The translations under genes were made by a program, and so were the position numbers. From contig NC_135820.1 of assembly GCF_964213995.1 (NCBI RefSeq), forward strand, positions 496,001-560,000: a DNA stretch of 64,000 bases, written 5' to 3'. Below, piece by piece: positions 15,548 to 57,850 of the stretch. Position 1 is the stretch's first letter. The number at the start of each line of letters is the position of its first letter. Below the pieces are notes generated by a model, which saw only the letters and a program-made list of their open reading frames with translations, made no database searches and had not been told where the DNA came from. The DNA is from Mustelus asterias. Taxonomy: Eukaryota.

Positions 15548-15644
15548 ATAGAGACACCTGTAAATGGACAGTAGGATTGCTCACGGCTGGAATCATGTTC
15601 GGTATTTGCCTGGCTGGAATCTTCATCTTTGTGTATGTGAGAAA
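15548..15644 (+). CDS. Siglec-like transmembrane exon (HRDTCKWTVGLLTAGIMFGICLAGIFIFVYVRK)
   Basis: TTTACAG| acceptor, AA|GTAAAT donor, 97 bp, phase 1-2; same size as and homologous to 43721-43817. Confidence 0.85.
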
Positions 15645-17404: not shown

Positions 17405-18230
17405 CCCTCTGACAGTGCGGCACTCCCTCAGCACTGACCCTCTGACAGTGCAGCACTCCCTCAGTACTGACCCTCTGACAGTGCGGCACTCCCTCAGCAC
17501 TGACCCTCTGACAGTGCGGCACTCCCTCAGTACTGACCCTCTGACAGTGCAGCACTCCCTCAGTAATGACCCTCTGACAGTGCGGCACTCCCTCAGTACT
17601 GACCCTCTGACAGTGCGGCACTCCCTCAGCACTGACCCTCTGACAGTGCGGCACTCCCTCAGTACTGACCCTCTGACAGTGCAGCACTCCCTCAGTACTG
17701 ACCCTCTGACAGTGCGGCACTCCCTCAGTACTGACCCTCTGACAGTGCGGCACTCCCTCAGCACTGACCCTCTGACAGTGCGGCACTCCCTCAGTACTGA
17801 CCCTCTGACAGTGCGGCACTCCCTCAGTACTGACCCTCTGACAGTGCGGCACTCCCTCAGCACTGACCCTCTGACAGTGCGGCACTCCCTCAGCACTGAC
17901 CCTCTTACAATGCGGCACTCCCACAGTACTGACCCTCTGACAGTGCGGCATTCCCTCAGTACTGACCCTCTTACAATGCGGCACTCCCACAGTACTGACC
18001 CTCTGACAGTGCGGCATTCCCTCAGTACTGACCCTCTTACAATGCGGCACTCCCACAGTACTGACCCTCTGACAGTGCGGCATTCCCTCAGTACTGACCC
18101 TCTGACAGTGCGGCACTCCCTCAGTACTGACCCTCTGACAGTGCGGCACTCCCACAGTACTGACCCTCTTAGAGTGCAGTGTTCCCTCATTTTGACCCTC
18201 ATACAATCCAGCGCTGCTTCAGTACTGACC
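17405..18230 (+). repeat. 33-bp minisatellite, ~24 copies
   Basis: Same unit as 7300-7615; a variant CTCTTACAATGCGGCACTCCCACAG recurs every second unit at ~17900-18070. Confidence 0.97.
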
Positions 18231-19524
18231 CTTCAGAATTTCCCACGAAGACAACACAACAGCTCCTAGAATAGACAGGCCGTTCAGCGTCACACTTCCT
18301 GCCAATTTTCACCATGCTAGAAACTCAAAAAAGGTGCAAGATAACTGAAAAAGGGGAAGGAACACAAAGCAGCCAGTGTATAAATGTGTGAAATAATTCG
18401 ACTTCTGATAGTACTCGCTGACCTGCTGCAAAGTTTAAATTTCACAGGAAATCTGAACTTTGCAGCTCAGAAGGAGGCGATTGATTCACTGCCTGAAAGG
18501 GTGCGGGAAGCAGATTCAATAGGAACTCCCAAAATGCCAATATTATAAGCAGATAAATTGGCAGGGCTGTAGGGTGTTGCGGGCTTTGATGTGAGTGTTT
18601 CAATTGATTACAACTTTATCCTTCAAGTAACCAGACCAGGCCATGGAGTTCTCTCGAAGAGCTGTTTCATGCAAGCAAGATAGCAAGGTCCCCAGAAAGT
18701 CATAGGCCGGTAACGAGCCTCAGCACAGCATTCAGGAATACACAAGCAGTTATATTTTCAAATTTGCTTACAAGTAATTAGCATATACCAATCAAAGTAT
18801 AGGAATTATCTCTATCCACTCAGAGTTATTTAAGATTACATCATGCACATGGTGCATATATTAAAACCAATGCCAATCACCTCATGCTTGCTTAATTATA
18901 ATATCCAGTCAGCATGAAGGTTTAATCATGTTCGCTGACCTAATTCATCATTGTTAGAAGTTAACATTGATGTCCCAGTTTGTGCTGCATCTGTGAATGT
19001 CACTGCCTTCTTCCAGTTCCAAATGTCTAAGTTAATTCATTCCCTCAGACAAAAGGCCTTGGTGCTAATCTGTGAAGTCTTTTATGAAGATTTTTTTTTT
19101 CTCTTGACAGCTGATGTGATTGTTAAACTTGTGTGATTATTAACTCTTTTAGGGGGAAAGAGCAGGGGAGAAAGTAGAGACAAATTGTATAGATCTTTCA
19201 ATGTGCCAGCATAGGAAAAATGGGCTGAATGGCCTCCTTCTGTGCTGCATCATTCTATAATCTGATGAGGTAAGATCTTATGAGCAACTCTTCAGATTCC
19301 TGCTGAACTCAGAAGAACCTTGAAAGTGTCACCCAGCATTCCCTTCGATCCTTCCTTCAGCATCTGCCCAGCTCGCTCGTTTGAAGCTGGATGAAAAGTT
19401 GCAGTACGTGCATGGCATATTCCACACTCTGCATAAACTCTTGAAATAAATCACTTGTAAATGTTGCCCCAATATCTGAAACAAGTGAATCTGGTAAGCC
19501 ATGACTTGCAAAAACTTGGCACGG

Positions 19525-24389: not shown

Positions 24390-27300
24390 AACTGTGGCAG
24401 ATGGAGTTTAACGTGGAAAAGTGTGAGGTTATCCACTTTGGTAGGAAAAATTGCAAGGGCAACTTATCTAAATGGAGAGAATCTTCATAGTGCTTCGGTG
24501 CAGAGGGATCTGGGCGTCCTTGTGTATGAACCACAGAAAGTTAGTACAGTATGCAGGTACAGCGGGTAATAAGGAAGGCAAATGGAATCTTGGTATTTAT
24601 TGCTAAAGCAATATAATATAAAAGTAGTAAAGTGTACTGTACAAGGCATTGGGGAGACCGCATTTAGAATATTGTGTACAGTTTTGGTCTCCTTGAGGGT
24701 GGCACGGTGGCACAGTAGTTAGCACTGCTGCCTCAGCGCCAGGTACCCGGGTTTGATTCCCAGCTTGAGTCACTGTCTGTGCGAAGTCTGCATGTTTTCC
24801 CCGTGTCTGCGTGGGTTTCTTCTGGGTGCTCCGGTTTCCTCCCACAGTCCAAAGATGTGCAGGTTAGGTGGATTGGCCAGGTTAAACTCTCCATCAGTCC
24901 GACATGTGGAGTTTTTTCAAGGAGCAGCTACTGCGAGTCTGTGATAGGTATGTCCCTGTCAGGCAAGGAGGAATTGGTAGGGCTAGGGAACCGTGGTGCA
25001 CCAAAAAAGTTTCTTTGTTGGTTAAAAAGAAAAAGGAGGCTTATGTTCGGATGAGACGTGAGCACTCGGGTAGTGCACTAGAAAGCTTTAGATTGGCTAA
25101 GAGGGAGTTGAAGAGCGAGCTTAGAAGGGCTAAAAGGGGACATGAGAAGACTTTGGCGGATAGGGTTAAAGAGAATCCTAAGGCGTTCTATAGGTATGTC
25201 AAGAACAGAAGGTTGGTTAGGGCAAGTTTAGGGCCAGTTATAGATGGCAGAGGGAAGTTATGTGTGGAACCGGAGGAGATTGGTGAAGCATTGAACCAAT
25301 ATTTCTCTTCGGTGTTCACGCAAGGGGACATGAATATAGCTGAGGAGGACACTGGGTTGCAGGGGAGTAGAATAGACAGTATTACAGTTGATAAGGAGGA
25401 TGTGCAGGATATTCTGGAGGGTCTGAAAATAGATAAATCCCCTGGTCCGGATGGGATTTATCCAAGGATTCTCTGGGAGGCAAGAGAAGTGATTGCAGCG
25501 CCTCTGGCTCTGATCTTCAGGTCGTCGTTGGCCTCTGGTATAGTACCAGAAGATTGGAGGTTAGCGAATGTTGTCCCATTGTTTAAGAAGGGGAACAGAG
25601 ACTTCCCCGGGAATTATAGACCGGTGAGTCTCACTTCTGTTGTCGGCAAGATGTTGGAAAAAATTATAAGGGATAGGATTTATAGTTATTTGGAGAGTAA
25701 TGAATTGATAGGTGATAGTCAGCATGGTTTTGTGGCAGGTAGGTCGTGCCTTACTAACCTTATTGAGTTTTTTGAGAAAGTGACCAAGGAGGTGGATGGG
25801 GGCAAGGCAGTGGACGTGGTATATATGGATTTTAGTAAGGCGTTTGATAAGGTTCACCATGGTAGGCTTCTGCAGAAAATGCAGATGTATGGGATTGGGG
25901 GTGATCTAGGAAATTGGATCAGGAATTGGCTAGCGGATAGGAAACAGAGGGTGGTGGTTGATAGTAAATATTCATCATGGAGTGCGGTTACAAGTGGTGT
26001 ACCTCAGGGATCTGTTTTGGGGCCACTGCTGTTTGTAATATTTATTAATGATCTGGATGAGGGTATAGTTGGGTGGATTAGCAAATTTGCTGATGACACC
26101 AAAGTCGGTGGTGTGGTAGACAGTGAGGAAGGGTGTCGTAGTCTGCAGGAAGACTTAGACAGGTTGCAAAGTTGGGCCGAGAGGTGGCGGATGGAGTTTA
26201 ATGCGGAGAAGTGTGAGGTAATTCACTTTGGTAGGAATAACAGATGTGTTGAGTATAGGGCTAACGGGAGGACTTTGAATAGTGTGGAGGAGCAGAGGGA
26301 TCTAGGTGTATGTGTGCATAGATCCCTGAAAGTTGGGAATCAAGTAGATAAGGTTGTTAAGAAGGCATATGGTGTCTTGGCGTTTATTGGTAGGGGGATT
26401 GAATTTAGGAGTCGTAGCGTTATGTTGCAACTGTACACAACTCTGGTGCGGCCGCACTTGGAGTACTGTGTGCAGTTCTGGTCCCCACATTACAGGAAGG
26501 ATGTGGAGGCTTTGGAGAGGGTGCAGAGGAGGTTTACCAGGATGTTGCCTGGTATGGAGGGGAGATCCTATGAGGAGAGGCTGAGGGATTTGGGATTGTT
26601 TTCGCTGGAAAGGCGGCGGCTAAGAGGGGATCTTATTGAAACATATAAGATGATTAGAGGTTTAGATAGGGTGGATAGTGATAGCCTTTTTCCTCTGATG
26701 GAGAAATCCAGCACGAGGGGGCATGGCTTTAAATTGAGGGGGGGTAGTTATAGAACCGATGTCAGGGGTAGGTTCTTTACCCAGAGGGTGGTGAGGGATT
26801 GGAATGCCCTGCCAGCATCAGTAGTAAATGCGCCTAGTTTGGGGGCGTTTAAGAGATCCGTAGATAGGTTCATGGACGAAAAGAAATTGGTTTAGGTTGG
26901 AGGGTCACAGTTTTTTTTTTTAACTGGTCGGTGCAACATCGTGGGCCGAAGGGCCTGTTCTGCGCTGTAATGTTCTATGTTCTATGTTCTATAAGGAGGA
27001 TTAGCAGGGTCAATATATGGGGTTACAGGGATAGAGCCTGGGTGGGGTCATTGTTGCTGCAGGCTTGATGGGCCTCCTTCTGTACTGTGGGGATTCTAGG
27101 ATCCGAAGGAGGTAGTTGCATTGGAGGTAGTTCAGAGGAGGTTCACTGGATTGATTCCAGAGATGAGTTTGTCTCACACTATACTCGCGAGACTTTAAAA
27201 GAATAATGGGAGATCCAATTGAGGTGTACAGAATGATGAGGAGGATTGCTGAAGTAGATGTGGAGAGGATGTTTCTGCTTGTGGGGCAATCTAGAACAAG

Positions 27301-29534: not shown

Positions 29535-30075
29535 GCGCTGCACTATCAGAGGGTCAGTGCTGAGGGAGTGCCGCACCATCAGAGGGTCAGTACTGAGGGA
29601 GTGCCGCACTGTCAGAGGGTCAGTACTGAGGGAGCACTGCACTGTGAGAGGGTCAGTACTGAGGGAGTGCCGCATTGTCAGTGGGTCAGCACTGAGGGAG
29701 TGCCGCACTATCAGAGGGTCAGTACTGAGGGAGTGCCGCACTGTCAGAGGGTCAGTACTGAGGGAGTGCTGCACTGTCAGAGGGTCAGTACTGAGGGAGT
29801 GCTGCACTGTCAGAGGGTCAGTACTGAGGGAGTGCCACACTGTCAGAGGGTCAGTACTGAGGGAGTGCCGCACTGTCAGAGTGTCAGTACTGAGGGAGTG
29901 CCGCACTGTCAGAGGGTCAGTACTGAGGGAGTGCCGCACTGTCAGAGGGTCAGTACAGAAAGTGCTGCACTGTCAGAGGGTCAGTACAGAAAGTGCTGCA
30001 CTGTCAGAGGGTCAGTACAGAAAGTGCTGCATTGTCAGAGGGTCAGTACAGAAAGTGCTGCACTGTCAGGGGGTC
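29535..30075 (-). repeat. 33-bp minisatellite in the opposite orientation, switching to a 31-bp variant (AGAGGGTCAGTACAGAAAGTGCTGCACTGTC) from ~29945
   Basis: Direct inspection of units. Confidence 0.95.
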
Positions 30076-30099
30076 AGTCTGGAGGGAGCGCTGCAATGT

Positions 30100-30270: not shown

Positions 30271-31028
30271 TGGGCATCAAACAACTGAATGTGTTCAAAG
30301 AACAAACAGCCTAAAGCTTAATCAAAGAGGAGGTCGTCCCAAGGGGCCTCTTAAAGGAGGAGGGAAGAGAGAAAGGTTCAGGATGTAAAGGTTTTCCTTG
30401 AGGAGAGGATCGATGAAAGTTGATCTGAAAGAGAGAGGGATGACACGCAAAGAGAAAGAGAGTGCCTTTAACAATATCGGCTGACTTGGAAACCAGGAGG
30501 CGAAGTTGTGCAGTCAACAGTTTACTGGGAAAAGGGTGGAGGGAACAGGAGTTGGCCCTCATGGACAAGCTGTGTTCAGAGAGCGAATGGAGTTGGCCCT
30601 CATGGACAAGCTGTGTTCAGAGAGCGAATGAGAGGAGAATGGAGAGAGGTTGTGGAAAGATGAGAGTTCAGGGCTCGGGCCGGGGTGGGATGGGGAGGGG
30701 GAGGTTTGGCCCAGTGGGCTCGTGAATGGGATTGAATTTGTCCGTTCTGTCCTGGTGGATCATCGATCAATACCAAAAGACATTTCCAATCAGAATGGAG
30801 AGAAGGAGTTTTCCAGCAGTGAGGAACAACCTGAAGGAGGAGGGACAAACTGAAAGACAGAGAATCATCTCAGAGAGATCATTTCAAAGATATCAGATTA
30901 TAACAAGAGCTTTAAAGCTGGTTCATGGGACTGAGACCCTGTGGATTTTTGGAAAGTAAATGGGAGTTTTGAATGATTCTCACGCTCTGTGTTCTCCCCA
31001 CACTGCGGGTGTCTCTTTCTCGCTCAGT

Positions 31029-31145
31029 TTATACATTCCCATAAATAGCATCCTCAGAAAAGTCACAGTTTGCATAAAGATCATCTTCTGGGTCAGGACT
31101 GAGGCTGTGTTTAGATTCCATTTCCAGAACCTTCCCATCTTTCTT
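31029..31145 (-). CDS. Siglec-like gene, exon 9 (terminal cytoplasmic): KKDGKVLEMESKHSLSPDPEDDLYANCDFSEDAIYGNV*
   Basis: Acceptor TATTACAG|, phase 0, TAA at 31031-31029; Tyr motifs LYANC and IYGNV. Confidence 0.8.
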   Translation of the reverse strand, partial: KKDGKVLEMESKHSLSPDPEDDLYANCDFSEDAIYGNV

Positions 31146-31239
31146 CTGTAATAGAAACAGAAATGATCAGAGAGATAATCAGAGTGATCTGTGTTTAGTA
31201 TAATTGATCCAAATTGAAACTTCCACCCACACGAGACAT

Positions 31240-32545
31240 TAATTATTGATTCTGAACAGAGTTTGATTATTGATACTGAATGGAGTTTGATTATTGCTAC
31301 TGAACGGGGTTTGAGTATTGACACTGAACGGGGTTTGATTATTACTACTGAACTGAGTTTGATTATTGATACTGAATGGGGTTTGGTTATTGACACTGAA
31401 CGGTGTTTGCTTACTGATACTGAACGGAGTTTGATTATTGCGACTGAACGGGGTTTGATTATTGACACTGAACGGAGTTTGATTATTGATACTGAACAGA
31501 GTTTGATTATTGCTACTGAACGGGGTTTGGTTATTGACACTTAACGGTGTTTGATTATTGATACTGAACCGGGTTTGATTATTGATACTGAACGGGGTTT
31601 GATTATTGACACTGAACGGGGTTTGATTATTGATACTGAACGGGGTTTCATTATTGACACTGAACGATGTTTGATTATTGACACTGAACGGGGTTTGATT
31701 GTTGACACTGAACGGGGTTTGATTATTGATATTGAACGGTGTTTGATTATTGATACTGAATGGGGTTTGATTATTGATACTGATCGGGGTTTGATTATAG
31801 ATACTGAACGGGGTTTGATTATTGACACTAAACAGTATTTGATTATTGCTACTGAACGGTGTTTGATTATTGCTACTGAATGGGGTTTGATTATTGATAT
31901 TGATCGGGGTTTGATTATTGCTACTGAACGGGGTTTGATTATTGATACTGAACGGTGTTTGATTATTGACACTGAACGGGCTTTGATTATTGACACTGAA
32001 CGCTGTTTGATTATTGACACTGAACGGGGTTTGATTATCGATACGAATCGGGGTTTGATTATCGATACGAAACGGGGTTTGATTATTGATACTGAATGGG
32101 GTTTGATTATTGATACTGAACGGGGTTTGATTATTGATACTGAATGGGGTTTGATTATTGATACTGAATGGGGTTTGATTATTAATACTGAACGATGTTT
32201 GATTATTGATACTGAACGGGGTTTGATTATTAATACTGAACGGGGTTTGATTATTGACACTGAATGGGGTTTGATTATCGATACGAAACGGAGTTTGATT
32301 ATCGATACTGAACGGGGTTTGATTATCGATACGAAACAGGGTTTGATTATTGCTACTGAACGGTGTTTGATTATTGCTACTGAACGGTGCTTGATTATTG
32401 ATACTGAACGGGGTTTGATTATTGATACGAAACGGGGTTTGATTATTGATATTGAACAGGGATTGATTATTGATATTGAACGGGGTTTGATTATTAATAC
32501 TGAATGGGGTTTGATTATCGATATGAAACGTGGTTTGATTTGATA
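31240..32545. repeat. 24-bp minisatellite (TTTGATTATTGATACTGAACGGGG), ~54 copies
   Basis: Direct tandem units; yields the spurious ORF (LIIDTERG)n. Confidence 0.97.
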
Positions 32546-32553
32546 ATTAATAC

Positions 32554-32652
32554 CGAATATTTGGCAGCCTCGAAGATTTCATAAAGATTCTCATCTGAAT
32601 CAGGACTGAGGCCGTGTTTAGATTCCATTTCCAGAACCTTCCCATCATTCTT
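32554..32652 (-). CDS. Siglec-like gene, exon 8 (duplicated cytoplasmic): KNDGKVLEMESKHGLSPDSDENLYEIFEAAKYS
   Basis: Acceptor region nearly identical to that of exon 9; 99 bp, phase 0-0; weak donor TCG|GTATTA. Confidence 0.6.
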
Positions 32653-32747
32653 CTGTAATAGAAACAGAAATGATCAGAGAAATAATCAGAGTGATCTGTG
32701 TTTAGTATAATTAATCCAAATTGAAACTTCCACCCACACGAGACGTT

Positions 32748-33260
32748 AATTATTGACACTGAACGGAGTTTGATTATTGACACTGAACGGGGTTTGATTA
32801 TTGACACTGAATGGGGTTTGATTATTGACACTGAACGGGGTTTGATTATTGATACTGAACAGGGTTTGATTATTGATACTGAACAGGGTTTGATTATTGA
32901 CACTGAACAGGGTTTGATTATTGACACTGAACGGGTTTTGATTATTGACACTGAACGGGGTTTGATTATTGATACTGAACGGGGTTTGATTATTGATACT
33001 GAACGGGGTTTGATTATTGATACTGAACGGGTTTTGATTATTGATACTGAACGGGGTTTGATTGTTGACACTGAATGGGGTTTGATTATTGATACTGAAC
33101 GGGGTTTGATTATTGATACTGAATGGGGTTTGATTATTGATACTGAACGGGGTTTGATTATTGACACTGAACGGAGTTTGATTATTGACACTGAACGGAG
33201 TTTGATGATTGATACTGAACGGGGTTTGATTATTGATACTGACTGGAGTTTAATTATTCA
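32748..33260. repeat. 24-bp minisatellite, ~21 copies
   Basis: Same unit as 31240-32545. Confidence 0.97.
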
Positions 33261-33676
33261 CACTGTGCCTTTGAGAAATGTATTTGTAGCATGTTTGTTG
33301 TGAAGGGACTGTTTTATTTTTCAGCCCTGATTACGGCGCTGACTGTTTCCGACCGGCAACCCACGTGCTGAGCATGCAGAAGGATAATCGCTCCGAGTTA
33401 TTGGAGTGTTTGTTTTAATTTGGGTGAATGCAGTTTTGTTACTTTTTGGGGTTGTTCTTTGGGGTTTCATAGTGGGGTTTAATTAGCCTGCCTGACAAGA
33501 AGAGATAGTCATATGAGTGGGCGGAGATAGGCTTCCAGAGAGCAGGCAGTTGGTGTTTGAATTTAAGCGGAGCAGCAACTCTTTTTCTCTCTCCTCTTTT
33601 TGGAAATTGAAGTCTGAGACCTGCTGGAAAATATGTATCAGTGGGAGGTTACTTAGGAGTAAGTAAAACTCAGATG

Positions 33677-34623
33677 GGGCAATTTTACCTTTTTTTATTC
33701 TAAGTGCTGGGCGGACCTGAAACTGGGCGAGTTTCAGATCTGTCTTCTGGGCATGTTCTCAGGCCCCCCTCCCCCCCATATGTACTCTGCCTGCAAAAAT
33801 ATCAGCAAGCCTGTTGCTCACTGCAGAAGCCTGTGGGCGGAGCTTAACACACGTGAAAGCATGTAGAGGGAGGTAGTGCTCATGTGCAGGCCTCTGATGC
33901 TGCACATGCGCAATAGCAGTAACAGGGGTTTGACAGACAAAGAGAGCTGTCAGGCCCCTGCTCGTGCAGGCGGCCTGAAGCAGTCCCCCCTGCAATCACG
34001 GTGGCCCAAGATAAAGCCCCTGCCAACCCCCCAACCCCAGCAATCGTGGACCTGCTGCCCTCCCCCCACCGATCGCTGCAGAGTGGCAGCGGACCCCTCT
34101 CCCCCCCTCCCCCCACCGATTCCTGCAAAATGGCAGCGGGCTCCTGCCCCCCATTAGTCCTGCCCCCTGGCACTGCCCAGTGGGCATTGTCCAGGTGCCC
34201 GGTGGGCATTGCTCAGGTGCCAGGGTGACACTGCCAAATTGGCACTGCCCAAGGGGTACTCCCCTTGGCCTCCCCGGGGGGCCTCAATGGTCTCCGGTTC
34301 AACCGGCGAGGCCAAGTCTGACTGCTCTCTGTTCATGGGGAGCATGTCTATTCCTCTCCGGCGTGAACCTTGCCCGGCGAGGTCACAAAGGGGGGGGCGG
34401 GCCCGGACAATTGAACGCTAGGCTCACGAAGCAGATGTCAAATAGCATTATCATAAATCTCTGTATATTAACCTGCCTCCTGCCCATTTCCAGCGAGAGG
34501 CTGACCGTGCCGGAAATCCGGCACTCGCGAAAACTGGTGCCAATCATGCAAAGTGCTTGACGCCCAACTTTACCACTGCGTCGTGCCCGAAAACTGGTGC
34601 AACGCGATGGTAAAACCATCCCC
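33677..34623 (+). mobile_element. GC-rich MITE-like element
   Basis: Imperfect TIRs GGGGCAATTTTACC / GGTAAAACCATCCCC; poly-C tracts and GGCACTGCC motifs shared with 190-750. Confidence 0.6.
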
Positions 34624-34656
34624 AGAGTGTGTCATGTGAATATGCTCAAACAGTAT

Positions 34657-34825
34657 AAAGCAAATTACATCGGTTGCTGGAATCTGAAACCAAAAGAGAA
34701 AATTCTGGAAAATCTCAGCAGGTCTGGCAGCATTTGTAAGGAGAGAAAGAGCTGACGTTTTGAGTCCAGATGACCTTTTGTCTGTCATGTGGACTCGAAA
34801 CGTCGTACTTTTCTCTCCTTACAGA
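34657..34825. mobile_element. Penelope-like terminal fragment with fold-back
   Basis: GCTGGAATCTGAAAC..CTGGAAAATCTCAGCAGGTCTGGCAGCA; internal inverted repeat; flanked by ATGCTCAAAC(A/G)GTAT duplication at 34642 and 34825. Confidence 0.6.
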
Positions 34826-35157
34826 TGCTCAAACGGTATTTTGATAGGGATAAAAAGCAGAAGAAGGATGTGTTGGTGGTTACAATGCAGAGTGAAAAAG
34901 AACTAGATTATTCTGAAACTGACATTCCTCAAATTGGATTGGACAATGAGGAAGTAATCAAATATTGGGATTTACATACTGAGTTACTTTCAGAAAAAAA
35001 TCAAAATGAACTGAAAGAGTTATTACATTCACATGGAGATATATGTGGGAATGTACTGGGAAAAACTAAAATAAGTGTGCTTGATGTAGAAAATGCTGTT
35101 CCAGTTGAGCAATATTTGTCCAGACTTAATCCACTGAAGCTGTCACAGGTTCAGAAG

Positions 35158-35510
35158 GAAAAGCTGACATTTGCTTGGCCTGAGATGCAGCAGTTGAAAG
35201 TCTCAATCAAACACTACGAAGGGCTGGTGGATAGTTACAAATCTCAGTTAATGAAGACTCGAATGGAGGCAGATGAGTGCAATGTAAAACTGGTGAAGGC
35301 AAAAGAGGAGAATCAGTTAGTGGACAATGATTGATTAAGGAAAGTGAGCCGGAGCGGAGACAAATGCAAGAAAAGTTGACTGATTTGGAAGCTGTTCCTG
35401 AGTTGTTGAACGTCAGCTGCAGGACTGTTAAAAACAACTCATCATCGAGGAGAGGAAAAATGTCGATGAATGAACAGTTATGTGTGATCGCAAAATGGAG
35501 ATTGAGGAGT
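35158..35510 (+). pseudogene. ODF2: ODF2/cenexin-like intronless coding fragment with stops and frameshifts
   Basis: EMQQLKVSIKHYEGLVDSYKSQLMKTRMEADE...KEEN; KESEPERRQMQEKLTDLEAVPELL; QLQDC*KQL..EERKNVD resemble the ODF2 coiled coil as recalled (QQLKASVKNYEGMIDNYKSQVMKTRLEADE...ERKNID). Confidence 0.75.
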
Positions 35511-36156
35511 ATTTTACGACTGCAGGCGAAAGTAAAGGACAACGACGTGAGGTGAGACAGTTTGATGAAACAGTACCATCGTTTGAAATGAACTGCTGGA
35601 ATAATGAATCGATACAGCTTGTACAGATGTGAATACCAAGAGAAGCAGTACTGTTCATAGCTGGTGTTCGAGTAAATTATGATGGTTTTTGCAGCAGCAT
35701 AATTGTCACGGTGATCGTTGGAACCATAATTACAATGAATTTTGACACCAAAGAAGACAATCTGCTATGTATCATTGCAAAGAATATGCAGAAAATGATA
35801 ATGAAGATCCTGAACAATTGAAGAAATTGGTAAAGTAGCTTTGAACAGAAAGATTGGAGATGCGGGAAAGACTGTTGAGACACCATTTCACAACAGAATG
35901 TGGAGTTGGACTGCCTGACAGAGGAATCTGTGAAAATCAAAAGAACTGTTTCGACTGAGCAAAGGAAATTAAAAAGCAAATCCAAAGTAGTTTGTGCAAG
36001 TTTGCATCCAATGTAAAGCTTTCTTGTTCATACTTCAGCTCTGATTATGGTGCCAATTGTCTATGACCAGCAGTCCACATGTTAAGAATGTAGATGAATA
36101 ATTGCTCCTAATTATTGGGGTGTTTGTTTTAATCTGAGTTAATGCAGTTTTGTTAT

Positions 36157-36505
36157 CATAGAATCATAGAATCATAGAAACCCTACAGTGCAGAAGGAGG
36201 CCATTCGGCCCATCGAGTCTGCACCGACCACAATCCCACCCAGGCCCTACCCCCACATATTTTACCCACTAATCCCTCTAACCTACGCATCCCAGGACTC
36301 TAAGGGGCAATTTTTTTAACCTGGCCAATCAACCTAACCCGCACATCTTTGGACTGTGGGAGGAAACCGGAGCACCCGGAGGAAACCCACGCAGACACGA
36401 GGAGAATGTGCAAACTCCACACAGACAGTGACCCGAGCCGGGAATCAAACCTGGGACCCTGGAGCTGTGAAGCAGCAGTGCTAACCACTGTGCTACCGTG
36501 CCGCC
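36157..36505 (-). mobile_element. HE1 V-SINE, full length
   Basis: (ATCATAGA)n tail, V-domain and GGGGCGGCACGGTAGCACAGTGG head on the minus strand. Confidence 0.95.
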
Positions 36506-37296
36506 CCTTTGGGTTGTCCCCTGGGGTTTCAGAGTAGGGTCTCTCAGACAAGAAGAGAGACTCATGAATGGGCGGAGCGAGGTTTACAGAGAGACAAACA
36601 GGCAGTTGCTCTTTGAATTTGGATATTTTTTCTCTCTCCCTCTCTTTCTGGAAATTGAAGTCTGGGACCTGCTACAAAATATGTATCCTTCTCCAGAGGT
36701 CTGCAAAAGGCAAGAAGTGTTTTCTCCCTCTTTCTTTTTTTGGAATTCTGCTGTTTGTGAAGACAGGTCTTTCTCTGAAGGCCACTGTCTGAGAGTCAGA
36801 AGACGGGTGTCTCTCTGTATCTCTGTCTAGACGTTATAGAAGGTTGGAGGCCTAGCAGGCCACATAAGACTCTGTTTTTGCTCACTTATTCTGAAGAGGC
36901 ATTTATGTCTATGGGAAATATTGCATAAATTGGAGGGATTCTGGGGGAAAGGTACTGAAGAAAGGTGGCAGTTTTTCAAGGAATGTCTGTCTAGAGTTCT
37001 ACAGGACAACGTTCCGAGCAGACAGGGAGCTGTCGGTCGGTTAAAGGAACCGTGGTGCACGAAAGCTGTGCGGGACCGAGTCGAGAAGAAAAGGCAAGCG
37101 TACAAAAGGCTCAGAGAGCTTGGCGAAGATAGGGATTTAGAAGAGTATACGGCTTGTCGGAAGGGACTAAAGAAGGAAATTAGGAGAGCCAGAAGGGGTC
37201 ACGAGAAGGCCCTGGCAGGTAGGATTAAGGAGAACCCTAAGGCGTTCTATAAATATGTGAAGAGTAAAAGGATGAGACGTGACGGAATAGGGCCTA

Positions 37297-40200
37297 TAGA
37301 ACATAGAACAGTACAGCACAGAACAGGCCCTTCGGCCCACGATGTTGTGCCGAGCTTTATCTTAAACCAAGATCAAGCTATCCCACTCCCTATCATCCTG
37401 GTGTGCTCCATGTGCCTATCCAATAACCGCTTAAATGTTCCTAAAGTGTCTGACTCCACTATCACTGCAGGCAGTCCATTCCACACCCCAACCACTCTGT
37501 GCGTAAAGAACCTACCTCTGATATCCTTCCTATATCTCCCACCATGAACCCTATAGTTATGCCCCCTTGTAATAGCTCCATCCACCCGAGGAAATAGTCT
37601 TTGAACGTTCACTCTATCTATCCCCTTCATCATTTTATAAACCTCTATTAAGTCTCCCCTCAGCCTCCTCTGCTCCAGAGAGAACAGCCCTAGCTCCCTC
37701 AACCTTTCCTCATAAGACCCACCCTCCAAACCAGGCAGCATCCTGGTAAATTTCCTCTGCACTCTTTCCAGCGCTTCCACATCCTTCTTTTAGTGAGGTG
37801 ACCAGAACTGCATACAATATTCCAAATGTGGTCTCACCAACGCCCTGTACAGTTGCAGCATAACCCCACGTCTCTTAAACTCCAACCCCCTATTAATAAA
37901 AGCTAACACACTATAGGCCTTCTTCACAGCTCTATCCACTTGAGTGGCAACCTTTAGAGATCTGTGGATATGAACCCCAAGATCGCTCTGTTCCTCCACA
38001 GTCTTCAGAACCCTACCTTTGACCCTGTAATCCACATTTAAATTTGTCCTACCAAAATGAATCACCTCACATTTATCAGGGTTAAACTCCATTTGCCATT
38101 TTTCAGCCCAGCTTTGCATCCTATCTATGTCTCTTTGCAGCCTACAACAGCCCTCCACCTCATCCACTACTCCACCAATCTTGGTGTCATCAGCAAATTT
38201 ACTGATCCACCCTTCAGCCCCCTCCTCTAAGTCATTAATAAAAATCACAAAGAGCAGAGCACCAAGCACTGATCCCTGCGGCACTCCGCTAGCAACTTGC
38301 CTCCAATCCGAAAATTTTTCATCCACCACCACTCTCTGTCTTTGATCAGACAGCCAGTTACCTATCCAATCGGCCAACTTTCCCTCTATGCCACACCTCC
38401 TTACTTTCATCATAAGCCGACCATGGGGGACCTTATCAAACGCCCTACTAAAATCCATGTATATGACATCAACTGCCCTACCTTCATTAACACACTTAGT
38501 TACCTCCTCAAAAAATTCAATCAAATTTGTGAGGCACGACTTGCCCTTCACAAATCCGTGCTGACTATCCCGGATTAATCCGCATCTTTCTAAATGGTCG
38601 TAAATCCCATCCCTAAGGACCTTTTCCATCAATTTACCAACCACCGAAGTAAAACTAACCGGTCTATAATTACCAGGGTCATTTCTATTCCCTTTCTTAA
38701 ACAGAGGAACAACATTCGCCATTCTCCAGTCCTCTGGCACACTCCATCTGACGAAGGGGCAGCGCTCCGAAAGCTTATGGTATTTGCTACCAAATAAACC
38801 TGTTGGACTTTAACCTGGTGTTGTGAGACTTCTTACTGTGCTTACCCCAGTCCAACGCCGGCATCTCCACACCATTCCCGTGGACAGCGAGGACCCAAAG
38901 ATCAAAGTCAAAGGCTCTGCAATCTCATCCCTTGCCTCCCAAAGAATCCTAGGATATATTTCATCAGGCCCAGGGGACTTATCGACCTTCAGTTTATTCA
39001 AAAGTGCCAGGACATCCTCCCTCCGAACATCTATTTCCTCCAGCCTATTAGCCTGTAACACCTTCTCTTCCTCAAAAACATGGCCCCTCTCCTTGGTGAA
39101 CACTGAAGAAAAGTATTCATTCATCACCTCGCCTATCTCTACTGACTCCATACACAAGTTCCCACTACTGTCCTTGACCGGCCCTAACCTCACCCTGGTC
39201 ATTCTTTTATTCCTCACATAAGGTAAAATGCCTTGGGGTTTTCCTTGATCCGACCCGCCAAGGACTTCTCATGTCCTCTCCTCGCTCTCCTAAGCCCCTT
39301 TTTCAGCTCGTTCCTTGCTAACTTGTAACCCTCAATCGAGCCATCTGAACCTTGTTTCCTCATCCGTACATAAGCTTCCCTCTTCCTTTTCACAAAACAT
39401 TCCACCTCTTTCATGAACCATGGTTCCCTCACTCGGCCATTTCCTCCCTGCCTGATAGGGACATACCTATCAAGGACACCCAGTATTTGTTCCTTGAAAT
39501 AGTTCCACTTTTCATTAGTGCCTTTCCCTGACAGTTTCTGTTCCCAACTTATGCCCCCTAATTCTTGCCTAATCGCAGCATAATTACCTCTCCCCCAATT
39601 GTAAACCTTGCCCTGCCACAATAACAAAAGACACCGAATTGTGGTCACTATCTCCAAAGTGCTCTCCCACAACCAAATCTAACACTTGGCCCGGTTCATT
39701 TCCCAGTACCAAATCCAATGTGGCCTCACCTCTTGTCGGCCTATCCACATATTGCGTCAGGAAACCCTCCTGCACACACTGCACAAAAACTGCCCCATCC
39801 GAACTATTTGACCTACAAAGGTTCCAATCAATATTTGGAAAGTTAAAGTCCCCCGTGACAACTACCCTGTGACCCCCACACATATCCATAATCTGCTTAG
39901 CAATTTCTTCCTCCACATCTCTATTACTATTTGGGGGCCTATAGTAAACTCCTAACAACGCGACCGCTCCTTTCCTATTTCTAACCTCAGCCCATATTAC
40001 CTCAGTGTGCAGATCCCCCTCGAAGTGCCTTTCCGCAGCCATTAAACTATCCTTGATTAACAATGCTACTCCTCCACCTCTTTTACCAGCTTCCCTACAC
40101 TTACTGAAACATCTATACCCCGGAACGTCCAACAACCATTCCTGTCCTTGTTCTACCCATGTCTCCGTAATGGCCACAACATCGTAGTCCCAAGTACCAA

Positions 40201-40326
40201 TCCACGCCCCAAGTTCATCTACCTTGTTCCGGATGCTCCTTGCATTGAAGTAGACACACTTCAACCCACCTTCCTGACTACCGGTACCCACCCTTGACCC
40301 TGATACCTTCCCCAATACCTCACCAA
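37297..40326 (-). mobile_element. CR1 family B copy (EN+RT, frameshifted)
   Basis: Near-identical to the reverse complement of 52070-54981. Confidence 0.95.
38741..38870 (+). mobile_element. Penelope-like terminal repeat fragment carrying a minimal hammerhead ribozyme motif
   Basis: CCAT-CTGACGA-AGGGGCAGCGCTCC-GAAA-GCTT-ATGG; same family as 55177 and 58232. Confidence 0.7.
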
Positions 40327-42329
40327 AAGGTGAAGGCGGGAAAGTCTGTACGGAACCAGTGGAAATGGCAGAGGTGCTCAATGAGTATTTTGCCTCGGTT
40401 TTCACAGAGGAGAAGGACCTGGGTGGATGTACTGTGGGCGTGCGGTGGACTGAAAGGATTGAGTATGTGGACTTTAAGAAAGAGGTTGTGCTGGAATCTT
40501 TGAATGGCATGAAGATAGATAAGTCACCGGGTCCGGATGGGATGTACCCCAGGTTACTGTGGGAGGCGAGGGAAGAGATTGCAGAGCCTCTGGCGATGAT
40601 CTTTGCGTCGTCGATGGAGACGGGAGAGGTGCCGGAGGATTGGAGGATTGCGGATGTGGTTCCTATTTTCAAGAAGGGGAATAGGGATAGCCCAGGAAAT
40701 TACCGACCGGTGAGTCTAACCTCAGTGGTTGGTAAACTGATGGAGAAGATCCTGAGGGACAGGATATATGAGCATTTAGAGAGGTTTAGTATGCTCAAGA
40801 ATACTCAGCATGGCTTTGTCAAGGGCAGATCGTGCCTTACGAGCCTGGTGGAGTTCTTCGAAAATGTGACATTGACAAAGGGAAGGCGGTAGATGTGGTT
40901 GAAATGGATTTTAGCAATGTGTTCAATAAGGTCCCCCATGCAAGGCTTCTAGAAAAAGTGAGAGGGCATGGGATCCAAGGGGCTGCTGCCCGGTGGATCC
41001 AGAACTGGCTTGCCCAAATGAGGCAGAGAGTGGATATAGATGGGTCTTTTTCTAAATGGAGGTCGGTCACCAGTGGCGTGCCCCAGGGATCTGTTCTGGG
41101 ACCCTTGCTGTTTGTCATTTTCATAAATGACCTGGATGAGGAAGCGGAGGGATGGGTTGGTAAGTTTGCCGCGACACGAAGGTTGGTGGGGTTGTGGATA
41201 GACTGGTGGGATGTCAGAAGTTACAGAGGGACATAGATAGGATGCAAGACTGGGCGGAGAAGTGGCAGATGGACTTCAACCCACATAAATACGTCGTGGT
41301 CCATTTTGGCAGGTCAAATAGGATGAAGGAGTGCAATATTAAGGGAAAGACTCTTAGTACTGTAGAGGACCAGAAGGACCTTGGGGTCTGGGTCCATAGG
41401 ACTCTGAAATCGGCCCCGCAGGTGGAGGAGGTGGTTAAGAAGGCGTATGGTGTGCTGGCCTTTATCAATCGAGGGATTGAGTTTAGGAGTCCGGGGATAA
41501 TGATGCAGCTATATAAGATCCTCGTCAGACCCCACTTGGAGTACTGTGCTCAGTTCTGGTCGCCTAATTACAGGAAGGATGTGGAAAAGATTGAAAGGGT
41601 GCAGAGGAGATTTAAAAGGATGTTGCCTGGATTGAGTGGCATGCCTTATGAGGATAGGCTGAGGGAGCTCGGTGTTTTCTCCTTGGAGAGACGAAGGATC
41701 AGAGGAGACCTAATAGAGGTGTATAAGATGTTGAGAGGCATTGATCGGGTGGACTCTCAGAGGCTTTTTCCCAGGGTGGAAATGGCTGCTACGAGAGGAC
41801 ACAGGTTTAAGGTGCTGGGGGGTAGGTACAGGGGAGATGTTAGGGGTAAGTTTTTCACGCAGGGTGGTGGGCGAGTGGAATCGGCTGCCGTCAGTGGTGG
41901 TGGAGGCGAACTCAATGGGGTCTTTTAAGAGACTCCTGGATGTGTACATGGAGCTTAATAGGATGGAGGGTTATAGGTAGGTCTAGAAGGTAGGGATGTG
42001 TTTGGCACAACTTGTGGGCCGAAGGGCCTATTTGTGCTGTAGATTTTCTATGTTTCTTTGTAATAGCTAGCAGTTAAGAATTATACCTTCTCATGTTTAA
42101 GTTGAGTTGTTCGATGCGGAAATGTTATGTTAATTCTTTTTGTTATAGTTAAACTGTATTGTTAAATAAAGTTTGTTTTAATAAAAACTTCCAAGTGGGT
42201 CGATAGAATCTCACCTGGAGTGAAACACCTTCTGCTCACTGTAATACTAAAATCAAAAAGTGACTGGGGTCTATTCTAACTTCATACTATACTTGGAGTT
42301 TCCGATCTGGTCCCTCACAATTCTGAATA

Positions 42330-42745
42330 GTGTTGTGTTTGATTATTGATATTAAATGGATTTGTTTATTGATACTGATCTGTGTTTAATTACTGAAACT
42401 GATGTTGGGTTTGATTATTGATACTGAACGGGGTTTGATTATTGATACTGAACGGGGTTTGATTATTGATACTGAACGGGATTTGATTATTGATGCTGAA
42501 TGGGGTTTGATTATTGATACTGAACGGGGTTTGATTATTGACACTGAACGGGGTTTGATTATTGACACTGAATGGGGTTTGATCATTGATACTGAACGGT
42601 GTTTGATTATTGATACTGAACGGGATTTGATTATTGATGCTGAATCGGGTTTGATTATTGATACTGAACAGGGTTTGATTATTGACACTGAACGGGGTTT
42701 GATTATTGACACTGAACGGTGTTTGATTATTGATACTGAATGATG
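42330..42745. repeat. 24-bp minisatellite, ~15 copies
   Basis: Same unit as 31240-32545. Confidence 0.95.
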
Positions 42746-42874
42746 TTGAGTTTGAGGTTTATTGAGTTGGGTTTGGGTCCATCACAGAGACATGACGAGA
42801 GCAAAGACATGACACATCAATAACCAGGTGACTATCCATGTGAAAGGCTCAGTACCTTGTGGTGTGTCACTCAC

Positions 42875-42982
42875 CTTCTGATGACTCAAGGACCTATCAA
42901 ACACACAATTTTCATAAGTAGGACCTTGATATTCATTGATTATACGGTTCAATTTCATCTCCCATTTTGAATCTCCTCTCTT
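42875..42982 (-). CDS. Siglec-like gene, exon 7 (cytoplasmic): KRGDSKWEMKLNRIINEYQGPTYENCVFDRSLSHQK
   Basis: TATTACAG| acceptor, AAG|GTGAGT donor, 108 bp, phase 0-0; homologous to exons 8 and 9; TYENC motif. Confidence 0.75.
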
Positions 42983-43107
42983 CTGTAATATAAATGGATA
43001 AGGACAGAGTAACTATCAACATGATCTGTGTTTGGTGTTGGCTTAGATTATTGGGGGAGTAAGTTCCCCCAGTTATGGAATATAATTCCAATCATTCCAT
43101 TACTTAC

Positions 43108-43192
43108 CCGGGACCCGTCCAATTGCCTGCCTTGAGAGTAACTGCTGACCTGCTCTGCTTGGGCTGAATGTCCTCTTCCTGTGCTGCTCCCT
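43108..43192 (-). CDS. Siglec-like gene, exon 6 (cytoplasmic): GSSTGRGHSAQAEQVSSYSQGRQLDGSR
   Basis: ACACACAG| acceptor, CGG|GTAAGT donor; 85 bp bridges phase 2 to 0; conserved paralog at 6323. Confidence 0.75.
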
Positions 43193-43720: not shown

Positions 43721-43817
43721 TTTCTCACACACTTGTAGATGATGAATCCAATTAGTCCAATGCACGAAGTGATTCCAGCTCCAAGCAATCCTGTTATCCA
43801 TTGATTGGAATCTCGAC
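43721..43817 (-). CDS. Siglec-like gene, exon 5 (TM): SRDSNQWITGLLGAGITSCIGLIGFIIYKCVRK
   Basis: TTTTACAG| acceptor, AA|GTAAGT donor; hydrophobic stretch followed by a basic stop-transfer. Confidence 0.88.
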
Positions 43818-45934: not shown

Positions 45935-46216
45935 TTTCCACAGTAATGGCTATGGACCTCTCCAATCCTCCATGTTCATTCTCTGCTACACACTGATAGA
46001 CTCCACTGTCCCTGGATGTAACGTGAGGAATCACCAACCGCAGCTCATTGTTGGATCTTGTGCTGTTTATTGGGACATCAAGATGTCTCCAGGTCAGGTT
46101 AGAAGCTGGGAAGCTCTCGACAGAGCAGATTATCACTGCCGAATTCCCCTCAGTTATATTGAGCCATGAAGCATTAATCATATCAAGAGAAGTGATTGAG
46201 AGATTTCGTGGCGCAT
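45935..46216 (-). CDS. Siglec-like gene, exon 4 (C2-set Ig)
   Basis: YAPRNLSI...ICSVESFPASNLTW...DSGVYQCVAENEHG; 282 bp, phase 1-1, AG/GT ends. Confidence 0.92.
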
Positions 46217-51072: not shown

Positions 51073-51366
51073 ATTGCACAATCAGCGTGAAGATCCGCTT
51101 CGATGAAACAGATGGAGATCTCACTCTACAGGTGAGATTGTGTCCGTGGTGCTTGAGTGATGGGATCAGGGTCAGAACAGAAGTATAGGTCAGAGTGACA
51201 CCATGCTGAGTTACAGTGTTTGAGACTGACCCAGGTACGTCAGTGGGAGTGTCCCAGGTTAAGACAGGTGCTGTTCCATTGCACGTTGTGTTGAAGGTGC
51301 AGCTTATGTCCACACGCTTTCCTGCAATAATTTCAGCAGGGAATATCGTGGGTTTATCTGTGAAAT
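51073..51366 (-). CDS. Siglec-like gene, exon 3 (C2-set Ig, domain 2)
   Basis: DFTDKPTIFP...ISCTFNTTCNGTAPVLTW...SVLTLIPSLKHHGHNLTCRV, typical of Siglec domain 2; 294 bp, phase 1-1. Confidence 0.93.
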
Positions 51367-52034: not shown

Positions 52035-54981
52035 GAGTTGTAGTCCAGAAGTCAGTGAGGGTGGTGAGGTATTGGGGAAGTATCAGGGTCAAGGGTGGGT
52101 ACTGGTAGACAGGAAGGTGGGTTGAAGTGTGTCTACTTCAATGCAAGGAGCATCCGGAACAAGGTAGATGAACTTGGGGCGTGGATTGGTACTTGGGACT
52201 ACGATGTTGTGGCCATTACGGAGACGTGGGTAGAACAAGGACAGGAATGGTTGTTGGACGTTCCGGGGTATAGATGTTTCACTAAGTGTAGGGAAGCTGG
52301 TAAAAGAGGTGGAGGAGTGGCATTGTTAATCAAGGAGAGTTTAACGGCTGCGGAAAGGCACTTCGTGGGGGATCTGCACACTGAGGTAATATGGGCTGAA
52401 GTTAGAAATAGGAAAGGAGCGGTCACGTTGCTAGGAGTTTACTATAGGCCCCCAAATAGTAATAGAGATGTGGAGGAAGAAATTGCTAAGCAGATTATGG
52501 ATATGTGTGGGGGTCACAGGGTAGTTGTCATGGGGGACTTTAACTTTCCAAATATTGATTGGAACCTTTGTAGGTCAAATAGTTTGGATGGGGCAGTTTT
52601 TGTGCAGTGTGTGCGGGAGGGTTTCCTGACACAATATGTGGATGGGCCGACTAGAGGTGAGGCCACATTGGATTTGGTACTGGGAAATGAACCGGGCCAA
52701 GTGTTAGATTTGGTTGTGGGAGAGCAATTTGGAGATAGTGACCACAATTCGGTGTCTTTTGTTATTGCAATGGAGAGGGATAGGGCCGTACGGCAGGGCA
52801 AGGTTTACAATTGGGGGAGGGGTAATTATGATGCGATTAGGCAAGAATTAGGGGGCATAAGTTGGGAACAGAAACTGTCAGAGAAAGGAACTAATGAAAA
52901 GTGGATCTTTTTCAAGGAACAAATACTGGATGTCCTTGATAGGTATGTTCCTGTCAGGCAGGGAGGAAATGGCCGAGTGAGGGAACCATGGTTCACAAAA
53001 GAGGTGGAATGTCTTGTGAAAAGGAAGAGGGAAGCTTATGTAGGGATGAGGAAACAAGGTTCAGATGGCTCAATTGAGGGTTACAAGTTAGCAAGGAATG
53101 AGCTGAAAAAGGGGCTTAGGAGAGCTAGGAGGGGACATGAGAAGTCCTTGGCGGGTCGGATCAAGGAAAACCCCAAGGCTTTTTACTCTTATGTGAGGAA
53201 TAAAAGAATGACCAGGGTGAGGTTAGGGCCGGTCAAGGACAGTAGTGGGAACTTGTGTATGGAGTCAGTAGAGATAGGCGAGGTGATGAATGAATACTTT
53301 TCTTCAGTGTTCACAAAGGAGAGGGGCCATGTTTTTGAGGAAGAGAAGGTGTTACAGGCTAATAGGCTGGAGGAAATAGATGTTCGGAGGGAGGATGTCT
53401 TGGCAGTTTTGAATAAACTGAAGGTCGATAAGTCCCCTGGGCCTGATGAAATGTATCCTAGGATTCTGTGGGAGGCAAGGGATGAGATTGCAGAGCCTTT
53501 GGCGTTGATCTTTGGGTCCTCGCTGTCCACGGGGATGGTGCCAGAGGACTGGAGAATGGCGAATGTTGTTCCTCTGTTTAAGAAAGGGAATAGAAATGAC
53601 CCTGGTAATTATAGACCGGTTAGTCTTACTTCGGTGGTTGGTAAATTGATGGAAAGGGTCCTTAGGGATGGGATTTACGACCATTTAGAAAGATGCGGAT
53701 TAATCCGAGATAGTCAGCACGGATTCGTGAAGGGCAAGTCGTGCCTCACAAATTTGATAGAATTTTCTGAGGAGGTAACTAAGTGTGTTGATGAAGGTAG
53801 GGCAGTTGATGTCATATACATGGATTTTAGTAAGGCGTTTGATAAGGTCCCCCATGGTCGGCTTATGATGAAAGTGAGGAGGTGTGGGATAGAGGGAAAG
53901 TTGGCCGATTGGATAGGTAACTGGCTGTCTGACCGAAGACAGAGGGTGGTGGTCGATGGAAAATTTTCGGATTGGAGGCAGGTTGCTAGAGGTGTGCCGC
54001 AGGGATCAGTGCTTGGTCCTCTGCTCTTTGTGATTTTTATTAATGACTTAGAGGAGGGGGCTGAAGGGTGGATCAGTAAATTTGCTGATGACACCAAGAT
54101 TGGTGGAGTAGTGGATGAGGTGGAGGGCTGTTGTAGGCTGCAAAGAGACATAGATAGGATGCAAAGCTGGGCTGAAAAATGGCAAATGGAGTTTAACCCT
54201 GATAAATGTGAGGTGATTCATTTTGGTAGGACAAATTTAAATGTGGATTACAGGGTCAAAGGTAGGGTTCTGAAGACTGTGGAGGAACAGAGAGATCTTG
54301 GGGTCCATATCCACAGATCTCTAAAGGTTGCCAGTCAAGTGGATAGAGCTGTGAAGAAGGCCTATAGTGTGTTAGCTTTTATTAACAGGGGGTTGGAGTT
54401 TAAGAGCCGTGGGGTTATGCTGCAACTGTACAGGACCTTGGTGAGACCACATTTGGAATATTGTGTGCAGTTCTGGTCACCTCACTATAAGAAGGATGTG
54501 GAAGCGCTGGAAAGAGTGCAGAGGAGATTTACCAGGATGCTGCCTGGTTTGGAGGGTAGGTCATATGAGGAAAGGTTGAGGGAGCTAGGGCTGTTCTCTC
54601 TGGAGCGGAGGAGGCTGAGGGGAGACTTAATAGAGGTGTATAAAATGATGAAGGGGATAGATAGAGTGAACGTTCAAAGACTATTTCCTCGGGTGGATGG
54701 AGCTATTACAAGGGGGCATAACTACAGGGTTCGTGGTGGGAGATACAGGACGGATATCAGAGGTAGGTTCTTTACGCAGAGAGTGGTTGGGGTGTGGAAT
54801 GGACTGCCTGCAGTGATAGTGGAGTCAGACACTTTAGAAACATTTAAGCGGTTATTGGACAGGCACATGGAGCACACCAGGATGATAGGGAGTGGGATAG
54901 CTTGATCTTGGTTTCTGATAAAGCTCGGCACAACATCGTGGGCCGAAGGGCCTGTTCTGTGCTGTACTGTTCTATGTTCTA
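52035..54981 (+). mobile_element. CR1 family B LINE with an uninterrupted 936-aa ORF2 (52095-54905; APE endonuclease + RT), ORF1 absent; nested in an older CR1 (51925-55790)
   Basis: CVYFNARSI, GDFN, SDH, FADDTK in one frame; (TTCTATG) tail. Confidence 0.97.
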
Positions 54982-55176
54982 TGAGGCCAGTGCCGTAGAT
55001 GTTGTCTACATGGACTTTAGCAAAGCCTTTGACAAGATACCACATGGTAGACTGGTCAGTAAGGTTAGATCAGATTGGATCCAGGGATAACTAGCCAATT
55101 GGCTTGTTGGTAGGAGACAGAGTGTGGTGGTAAAGGATTGCTTTTCAGACTGGAGGCATGTGACCAGCAGTGTGCA

Positions 55177-57810: not shown

Positions 57811-57850
57811 CTTGGAGAAGTGACAGGAGGAAGTAAGATTTCCCAATCAT
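57811..57850 (-). CDS. Siglec-like gene, exon 1 (leader): MIGKSYFLLSLLQ
   Basis: ATG at 57850, CAAG|GTAATA donor in phase 1, joins VGLSQDW; upstream acceptor at 57893 suggests a 5' UTR exon. Confidence 0.8.

Follow-up and report, generated by a model that had tools for sequence, protein, structure and literature searches.

A Siglec-like receptor gene of the shark Mustelus asterias whose cytoplasmic tail probably grew by two unrelated exon duplications

Siglecs, the immunoglobulin-like lectins that bind sialic acid, carry an essential V-set arginine within a YxFR motif (PMC13358205). Their signalling classes have been given as ITIM (the inhibitory motif of immunoreceptors that is based on tyrosine) or DAP12, the latter with a basic transmembrane (TM) residue, and gene conversion is a known trait of their loci (PMC6288428). 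Fish have been described as having four regular Siglecs, and the ITIM consensus as [I/V/L/S]xYxx[L/V] (PMC7226832). Outside this family, a phosphorylated YxN sequence (pYxN) forms the Grb2 SH2 consensus and drives activation of DNAM-1 (PMC4647266). Tandem exon duplication, terminal exons included, is reported for ~10% of animal genes, and repeats were noted in the introns between the duplicated exons of OBSCN (PMC9013439). In the mostly open-access literature searched, we found no paper devoted to shark or elasmobranch Siglecs or their tails, an absence that is weak evidence, and nothing related on exon duplication together with tail motifs; a whale shark paper has a single mention of Siglecs (PMC8455134). 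The window analyzed here is a 64-kb stretch of repeat-rich DNA of Mustelus asterias (NC_135820.1, positions 496,001 to 560,000), whose minus strand holds a gene for a Siglec-like receptor, modelled in RefSeq as XP_078093142.1, with three tyrosine exons (A, B and C, in order of transcription) in its cytoplasmic tail. In our preferred reading, which we consider probable, this tail grew by two unrelated exon duplications, an old one that gave A and C and a young one that left B fused to a minisatellite array, B being most likely skipped. Exon B shows clearly how a duplicated exon can have its end supplied by a minisatellite unit. The features of the tail region are as follows.

42875 to 42982, minus strand: exon A (exon 7), symmetric exon in phase 0 that bears a single YENC and has a strong donor (7/9); in the RefSeq model
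42320 to 42745, minus strand: minisatellite alpha, 17 units and a partial one, starting ~130 nt past the donor of A (unit parsing)
33264 to 42319, no strand: transposon nest of 9,056 bp (TG...CA ends, array flanks in unit register, 4-bp overlap)
35937 to 35954, minus strand: five-codon terminal exon of the RefSeq model, inside the transposon nest
32745 to 33263, minus strand: minisatellite beta1, ~21 units, continuing alpha (unit parsing)
32653 to 32744, minus strand: unique end of the intron before B with the acceptor, a duplicate of the segment before C (90/92 identical)
32554 to 32652, minus strand: exon B (exon 8), 3'-truncated copy of C (alignment to C, unit parsing)
31238 to 32557, minus strand: minisatellite beta2, ~54 units, filling the B-C intron (unit parsing)
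31146 to 31237, minus strand: unique intron end and acceptor of C (alignment to B)
31029 to 31145, minus strand: exon C (exon 9), terminal coding exon with YANC-x7-YGNV and the stop (orthologous C-termini of 18 other shark proteins)

Exons B and C are clearly recent duplicates. Their 54-nt acceptor contexts agree at 53/54 positions (A-B 41/54, A-C 40/54; the next best site in the window reaches 30/54), and they differ at 2 of 92 bases in the unique part of the intron and, within the exon, at 3 of the leading 54 bases and 5 of the following 21. The duplicate extends across 692 bp with 90% identity at an offset of 1507 bp, identity being 98% within the intron and declining to 76% close to the junction; near-identical stretches had been reported here in a first-pass annotation of this DNA. 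Over the first 25 codons B and C show eight codon differences, seven amino-acid-changing and one silent, with no sign of purifying selection. Near-identity in a repeat-rich region is also what an assembly artefact, namely a false haplotype duplication, would produce; however, the window contains no N, the unit order of beta1 and beta2 differs, and B has a private deletion and junction besides these codon differences, which makes this explanation extremely improbable.

Exon B tracks C as far as C's last tyrosine codon, minus a 9-nt in-frame deletion. The part at ~32558-32652 is derived from C, and everything from 32557 downward, including the last codon and a weak GT, is derived from the array: the 19 nt starting at the last Tyr codon of B match the array unit at 16/19 positions and C's own end at 10/19, and none of 19,176 random 19-mers reached even 15 against the unit. 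Global alignment had offered B as a whole copy of C with a mutated stop, a candidate that was dropped, its last codon and GT being a degenerate array unit. Since the junction of B is array-like and not C-like, the duplicated block had one end in the array and the other inside the exon. A segment made of array units, the 92-bp intron end and most of exon C would thus have been tandemly duplicated, leaving B fused to the array; the junction itself can be read directly, and the pathway may have been non-homologous or microhomology-type repair. Beyond its part in one breakpoint, the minisatellite would have been a passenger.

The first-pass annotation had seen 24-bp arrays between the copies, and both introns do hold them, in blocks of 17, ~21 and ~54 units. 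Its explanation, that unequal crossover within the minisatellite produced three symmetrical exons and sets the number of Tyr motifs, has in its favour that arrays now flank B, that all acceptors are phase 0, and that module number varies among annotated paralogs. Unequal crossover between arrays would, however, need arrays flanking the copied unit on both sides, and no array was found 3' of C (best unit match 14/24 in 30600-31100) or in the 125-nt intron 5' of A (best 13/24), so that array-by-array exchange could make neither copy. Moreover, one B/C breakpoint lies inside an exon and hence outside the arrays, the very observation that the annotation had named as counting against its proposal. 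Nor are the exons uniformly symmetrical, given that C is terminal, with a stop, and that the donor of B is weak (4/9) and made of array sequence. The A/C pair is common to three shark orders (see below), B contributes no YxN, and no offset stands out when the unit order of beta1 is aligned with that of beta2 (best 0.892, next 0.888). Altogether, crossover between arrays is a very improbable source of the three exons, and as the origin of B it is contradicted by the present sequence.

Exon A is a more distant relative. Like B and C, it has an open frame and starts at a phase-0 acceptor (TATTACAG followed by AAG), as the first-pass annotation had it, but its exon DNA alone is not detectably similar to theirs: 511 and 1288 of 2000 shuffles scored as high against C and B, respectively, and BLASTP returned no match when A was compared directly with B and C. 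In contrast, a C-type profile derived from 18 segments in other proteins scored A at 22.2 bits, a value reached by 0/300 shuffles, and among ten other A-type rows tested against the C-type profile, four stood at 0/300 shuffles and six at 1-5/300. The homology of A to B and C is therefore carried by the acceptor context and the protein profile test, not by exon DNA. With these restrictions, it was borne out that the exons encode cytoplasmic tyrosine motifs of an Ig-superfamily receptor and are products of duplication. An array origin of the shared acceptor segment is unsupported (best unit match 12/24). A fourth exact copy of the 12-mer common to the three acceptor contexts is found at 42376-42387 (minus strand), in the degenerate end of array alpha. 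All three acceptors (that of A at 42982/42979) are tandem CAG/AAG sites, and the first Lys of A is missing from the RefSeq model, as if the second AG were used.

The age of the A/C pair was assessed on 115 fetched shark-family proteins, 28 of which (isoforms counted) have this type of tail, with two modules in 18/28, one in 10/28 and three in 0/28. Thus, as the first-pass annotation expected, module number does differ among annotated paralogs and isoforms, although B adds no YxN motif to this variation. An unrooted tree of 31 segments in 39 columns (A, B and C together with 18 of the 28 tails, after omission of ten rows that were isoforms or duplicates) separated A-type and C-type segments into distinct clades (support 99.9/100), both of which contain Rhincodon, Stegostoma, Chiloscyllium, Hemiscyllium, Carcharodon, Cetorhinus and Mustelus, that is, carpet, mackerel and ground sharks. 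The pair consequently dates back at least to the divergence of these three orders, well over 100 million years ago, and the flanking arrays do not explain it. On the evidence of the tree, a terminal exon with an acidic Y-x-N-C-x7-Y-x-N module would have duplicated before these sharks diverged, and the upstream copy, A, would have kept the first motif only (YENC), gained a donor and become a phase-0 cassette. Exon B clusters with the window C and a Mustelus paralog (support 99.5/99). In Carcharodon, A is absent from isoform XP_041037223.1 and retained in X1, X3 and X4. A single module, with YENC and YANV, is present in the three squalomorph rows (Heptranchias, Pristiophorus), and five galeomorph one-module rows nest among the C-types, which suggests loss, skipping or under-annotation. 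Compared with described tandem exon duplications, the locus shares homologous adjacent exons with a duplicated acceptor context (PMC9013439) and differs in that B is 3'-truncated, a minisatellite unit supplying its final codon and GT, and in that A, once terminal, would have become an internal cassette. In the M. asterias paralog XP_078092314.1, exon C is 35/38 (92%) identical to the window C, and the model extends beyond the final motif, which suggests that the region has undergone further recent duplications on the same chromosome.

The donor of B matches the U1 consensus at 4/9 positions, against 6-8/9 for the other seven donors of the gene, and the 106 GTs of beta2 reach no more than 5/9. 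Read-through past B meets a stop after 12 more codons, inside the array. The first-pass annotation had assigned YEN/YAN motifs to all three exons; these are present in A (YENC) and C (YANC, together with YGNV), whereas B has YEIF and no YxN. No transcript-level model containing B was found. From these features, B would most likely be skipped, with A spliced to C and three YxN motifs in the tail; if its acceptor were used, read-through to the array stop would be the likelier outcome, and the tail would lose the two YxN motifs of C. Most likely, then, B is either skipped or ends the protein early; it is not expected to add a YxN and, as a terminal exon, would remove two.

Alternatively, B could be a real cassette spliced through the array-derived GT, which would lengthen the spacer of the resulting A-B-C tail and add tyrosines outside YxN motifs; its inclusion could be tuned by the length of the array or by variant units. 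In favour of this, the GT keeps phase 0, an open frame runs through all nine exons and the acceptor agrees with that of C at 53/54 positions; furthermore, tandem repeats are known to modulate human splicing (PMC10078293). The repeat abutting a candidate splice donor resembles such splicing-associated repeats, any length polymorphism or splicing effect here being hypothetical. With its 4/9 donor, its absence from the RefSeq model, the lack of three-module tails and the 7:1 ratio of changing to silent differences, B is quite unlikely to serve as a cassette. Being flanked by repeats, B could nevertheless vary in copy number. Beta1, intron end and B on one side and beta2, intron end and C on the other make a 1.5-kb direct repeat that can mispair; its 90% identity and 1507-bp offset, and a fall in identity towards the junction that fits ongoing conversion, speak for variability, while a single haplotype is available and the diverged unit order of beta1 and beta2 suggests that the copies have existed separately for some time. 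Present-day copy-number variation, which is compatible with our preferred reading, is a tentative possibility, on the unlikely side.

Several points weigh against the skipping of a young, array-fused B and against an old A/C pair. The nine-exon frame through B is fully open (495 codons) and the deletion within B is in frame; the acceptor of B is intact and is the first in line after A. The RefSeq model stops in the transposon nest and contains neither B nor C, so that its silence on B is weak evidence, and the gene may have ceased to extend as far as C. The sequence GTAT, common to the Val-stop codons of C and to the array unit, permits a slightly different junction, still exon-to-array. Finally, the tree is unrooted, covers only 39 columns and comes from gene models of unseen support. 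The loss of C can be put as a separate explanation, in which the nest breaks the A-C intron, transcripts end within it, and B and C are silent, leaving a one-YxN tail. The RefSeq end at 35954-35937 and six AATAAA hexamers on the sense strand of the A-B intron agree with it. Yet C is intact, retains all conserved motif positions and is 92% identical to the C of the paralog, and gene-model ends inside repeats are a frequent annotation artefact; we therefore find a broken intron unlikely.

The preferred reading, with A spliced to C, has consequences for signalling. In the C-type module (19 rows), the tyrosine spacing is 11 in 19/19, the second YxN is present in 19/19 and the first in 17/19, and none of the 19 TM segments contains the K or R characteristic of DAP12-type receptors. 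Neither ITIM nor immunoreceptor tyrosine-based switch motif (ITSM) was matched in exon 6, A, B, the B read-through or C. The immunoreceptor tyrosine-based activation motif (ITAM) has the consensus YxxL/I-x6-8-YxxL/I; x7 spacing is present in 19/19 rows and the second +3 residue is V/I/L in 17/19, but the first +3 residue is Cys in 17/19 and never L/I. What does occur at sequence level is the immunoglobulin tail tyrosine (ITT)-like, Grb2-type pY-x-N consensus, as YENC in A and as YANC and YGNV in C, with none in B. On the basis of these motifs, sialoglycan binding would lead to Src-family phosphorylation of the YxN tyrosines and to recruitment of a Grb2-family adaptor, instead of ITIM/SHP-1 or DAP12 signalling. 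The receptor is probably an adaptor-recruiting Siglec, activating or co-stimulatory, to which A would add a third YxN as a cassette.

The nearest described case is the ITT-like pYxN of DNAM-1/CD226, likewise a Grb2 SH2 consensus in an Ig-superfamily tail without ITIM (PMC4647266). The window tail differs in having up to three YxN, two of them at ITAM-like spacing, and the likeness is one of motifs, with no homology claimed. What merits further attention is the YxN-x-YxN tail, which is conserved across every shark lineage sampled; the exon duplication itself is an ordinary event for a fast-evolving immune-receptor cluster. Sharks show an expanded Siglec cluster with both ITIM-type and YxN-type tails, unlike the account given for fish in PMC7226832, and if the tail recruits Grb2, it would represent an adaptor-independent activating Siglec and bear on the ancestral function of Siglec tails. 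A bolder proposal would make these receptors a third shark Siglec signalling class (Grb2-type YxN at ITAM spacing, without ITIM or DAP12) paired with ITIM paralogs, in which the skippable A tunes YxN dosage and a copy-variable decoy B with its minisatellite donor truncates the tail, so that array alleles tune signalling; in this full form we regard it as speculative and rather improbable. ITIM-type tails (LLYANINF ... EYAQI) share an LYAN core with the YxN class (DLYANC), and the two tail classes may be homologous with a changed +3 position. In two Carcharodon ITIM-class models (P0028, P0048) the whole cytoplasmic block is repeated twice, possibly through a further tail duplication or through merging of models.

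Upstream of the tail, the gene comprises the following exons.

57811 to 57850, minus strand: exon 1, 40 nt of coding sequence for the signal peptide, phase 1 (tblastn of XP_078093142.1, 13/13 identical)
56180 to 56542, minus strand: exon 2, V-set Ig domain of Siglec type, including R115, the arginine of YxFR (Pfam V-set and Ig_CD22; PDB MAG, Siglec-10/5/7/CD33)
51073 to 51366, minus strand: exon 3, first C2-set Ig domain (Pfam C2-set_2; in the RefSeq model)
45935 to 46216, minus strand: exon 4, second C2/I-set Ig domain, open, phase 1-1 (Pfam Ig_3/I-set; not in the RefSeq model)
43721 to 43817, minus strand: exon 5, TM segment with zero charged residues (RefSeq model, boundaries)
43108 to 43192, minus strand: exon 6, juxtamembrane cytoplasmic exon, phase 2 to 0 (RefSeq model, boundaries)

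The nine-exon model (leader, V-set, two C2, TM, juxtamembrane, A, B and C) has canonical AG/GT boundaries throughout and no internal stop, its open frame being 462 codons without B. The V-set exon is identical at 120/120 residues to XP_078093142.1, the sole 100% match of 77, and the first 292 residues of our model are the same as in that protein; its RefSeq name, 'sialic acid-binding Ig-like lectin 13', is an automatic label and not evidence of orthology to primate Siglec-13. The RefSeq model skips the second C2 exon, keeps A, leaves both B and C unused and ends with the five codons in the nest. The skipped exon 4 is intact (45935-46216, minus strand), and either a cassette or an annotation miss is possible.

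By its sequence, the locus encodes a shark Siglec-like type I receptor (V-set, two C2 domains, TM and tail) with putative sialoglycan binding. The best PDB matches are MAG and CD33-type Siglecs (MAG/CD33 over residues 19-221, E 2e-26), and the architecture is that of Siglecs, with an N-terminal V-set, C2-set domains and a single TM segment (Pfam V-set/Ig_CD22, C2-set_2). The window YFFR (R115) aligns with YYFR of MAG. Siglecs have three Cys in each of domains 1 and 2, and C35/C40/C97 and C157/C163/C214 of the window protein line up with the cysteines of MAG. With the Siglec family (MAG/Siglec-4, CD33-related Siglecs and CD22) the receptor therefore shares the YxFR V-set, C2-sets, single TM, tyrosine tail and clustered paralogs, and ITIM-consensus tails are present in 26/115 of the fetched shark-family proteins. 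The window subfamily differs in lacking both ITIM and a basic TM residue and in having YxN motifs in their place.

The 24-bp unit of the three arrays has no match of at least 17/24 elsewhere in the 64-kb window, and the units differ from the consensus by 1.7-2.1 on average. The 9-kb transposon nest divides what is a single array into alpha and beta1: the flanks of the nest rejoin in unit register, and their 4-base overlap has the size of a target-site duplication, each copy being one change from the unit. The layout before this insertion was A, 130 nt, array, 92 nt and exon, and the insertion may be later or earlier than the duplication of B. The absence of a distinguished beta1/beta2 alignment implies that the arrays have turned over since the duplication, and mapping of the B/C breakpoint by variant-unit order failed for want of an offset that stands out. 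Comparison of the open frame of the array with 1.84 billion proteins returned periodic look-alikes only (up to 53% identity among the 150 matches listed), and array-derived peptides were absent from the 115 shark-family proteins; both results are uninformative on introns.

Inside the nest are two diverged stretches resembling long terminal repeats (LTR), repeats like short interspersed nuclear elements (SINE) and reverse-transcriptase pieces of long interspersed nuclear elements (LINE); SINE and CR1 are names we assume for these repeats. The LTR-like pair (33320-33639 and 36034-36687) is 74-79% identical, with only partial pairing, an RVT_1 domain (Pfam) lies at 40790-41233, and a Pfam search of 34774-35331 gave no match. 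LINE copies at 37291-40325 and 52062-54988 are 95-97% identical, pointing to recent activity; in the A-B intron, one of these copies has inserted head-on into an older LINE. Elsewhere in the window, 24886-26892 (plus strand) is a stop-free LINE reverse-transcriptase open reading frame of 669 codons. An unrelated 33-bp satellite forms three arrays (7302-7617, 17399-18232 and 29540-30099), the last ~1 kb downstream of the stop of C and just before the first candidate poly(A) hexamer (29502).

A second Siglec-like paralog lies on the opposite (plus) strand, with pieces at 6290-6371 (juxtamembrane-like), 9160-9441 (a broken C2 interrupted by a LINE), 10848-11159 (an intact C2), 15548-15645 (a TM exon) and 18233-18353 (an intron 1-like stretch matching 57258-57378). 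No V-set or tail exon of this paralog was found in the window, and the fetched proteins match it at up to 90.5%.

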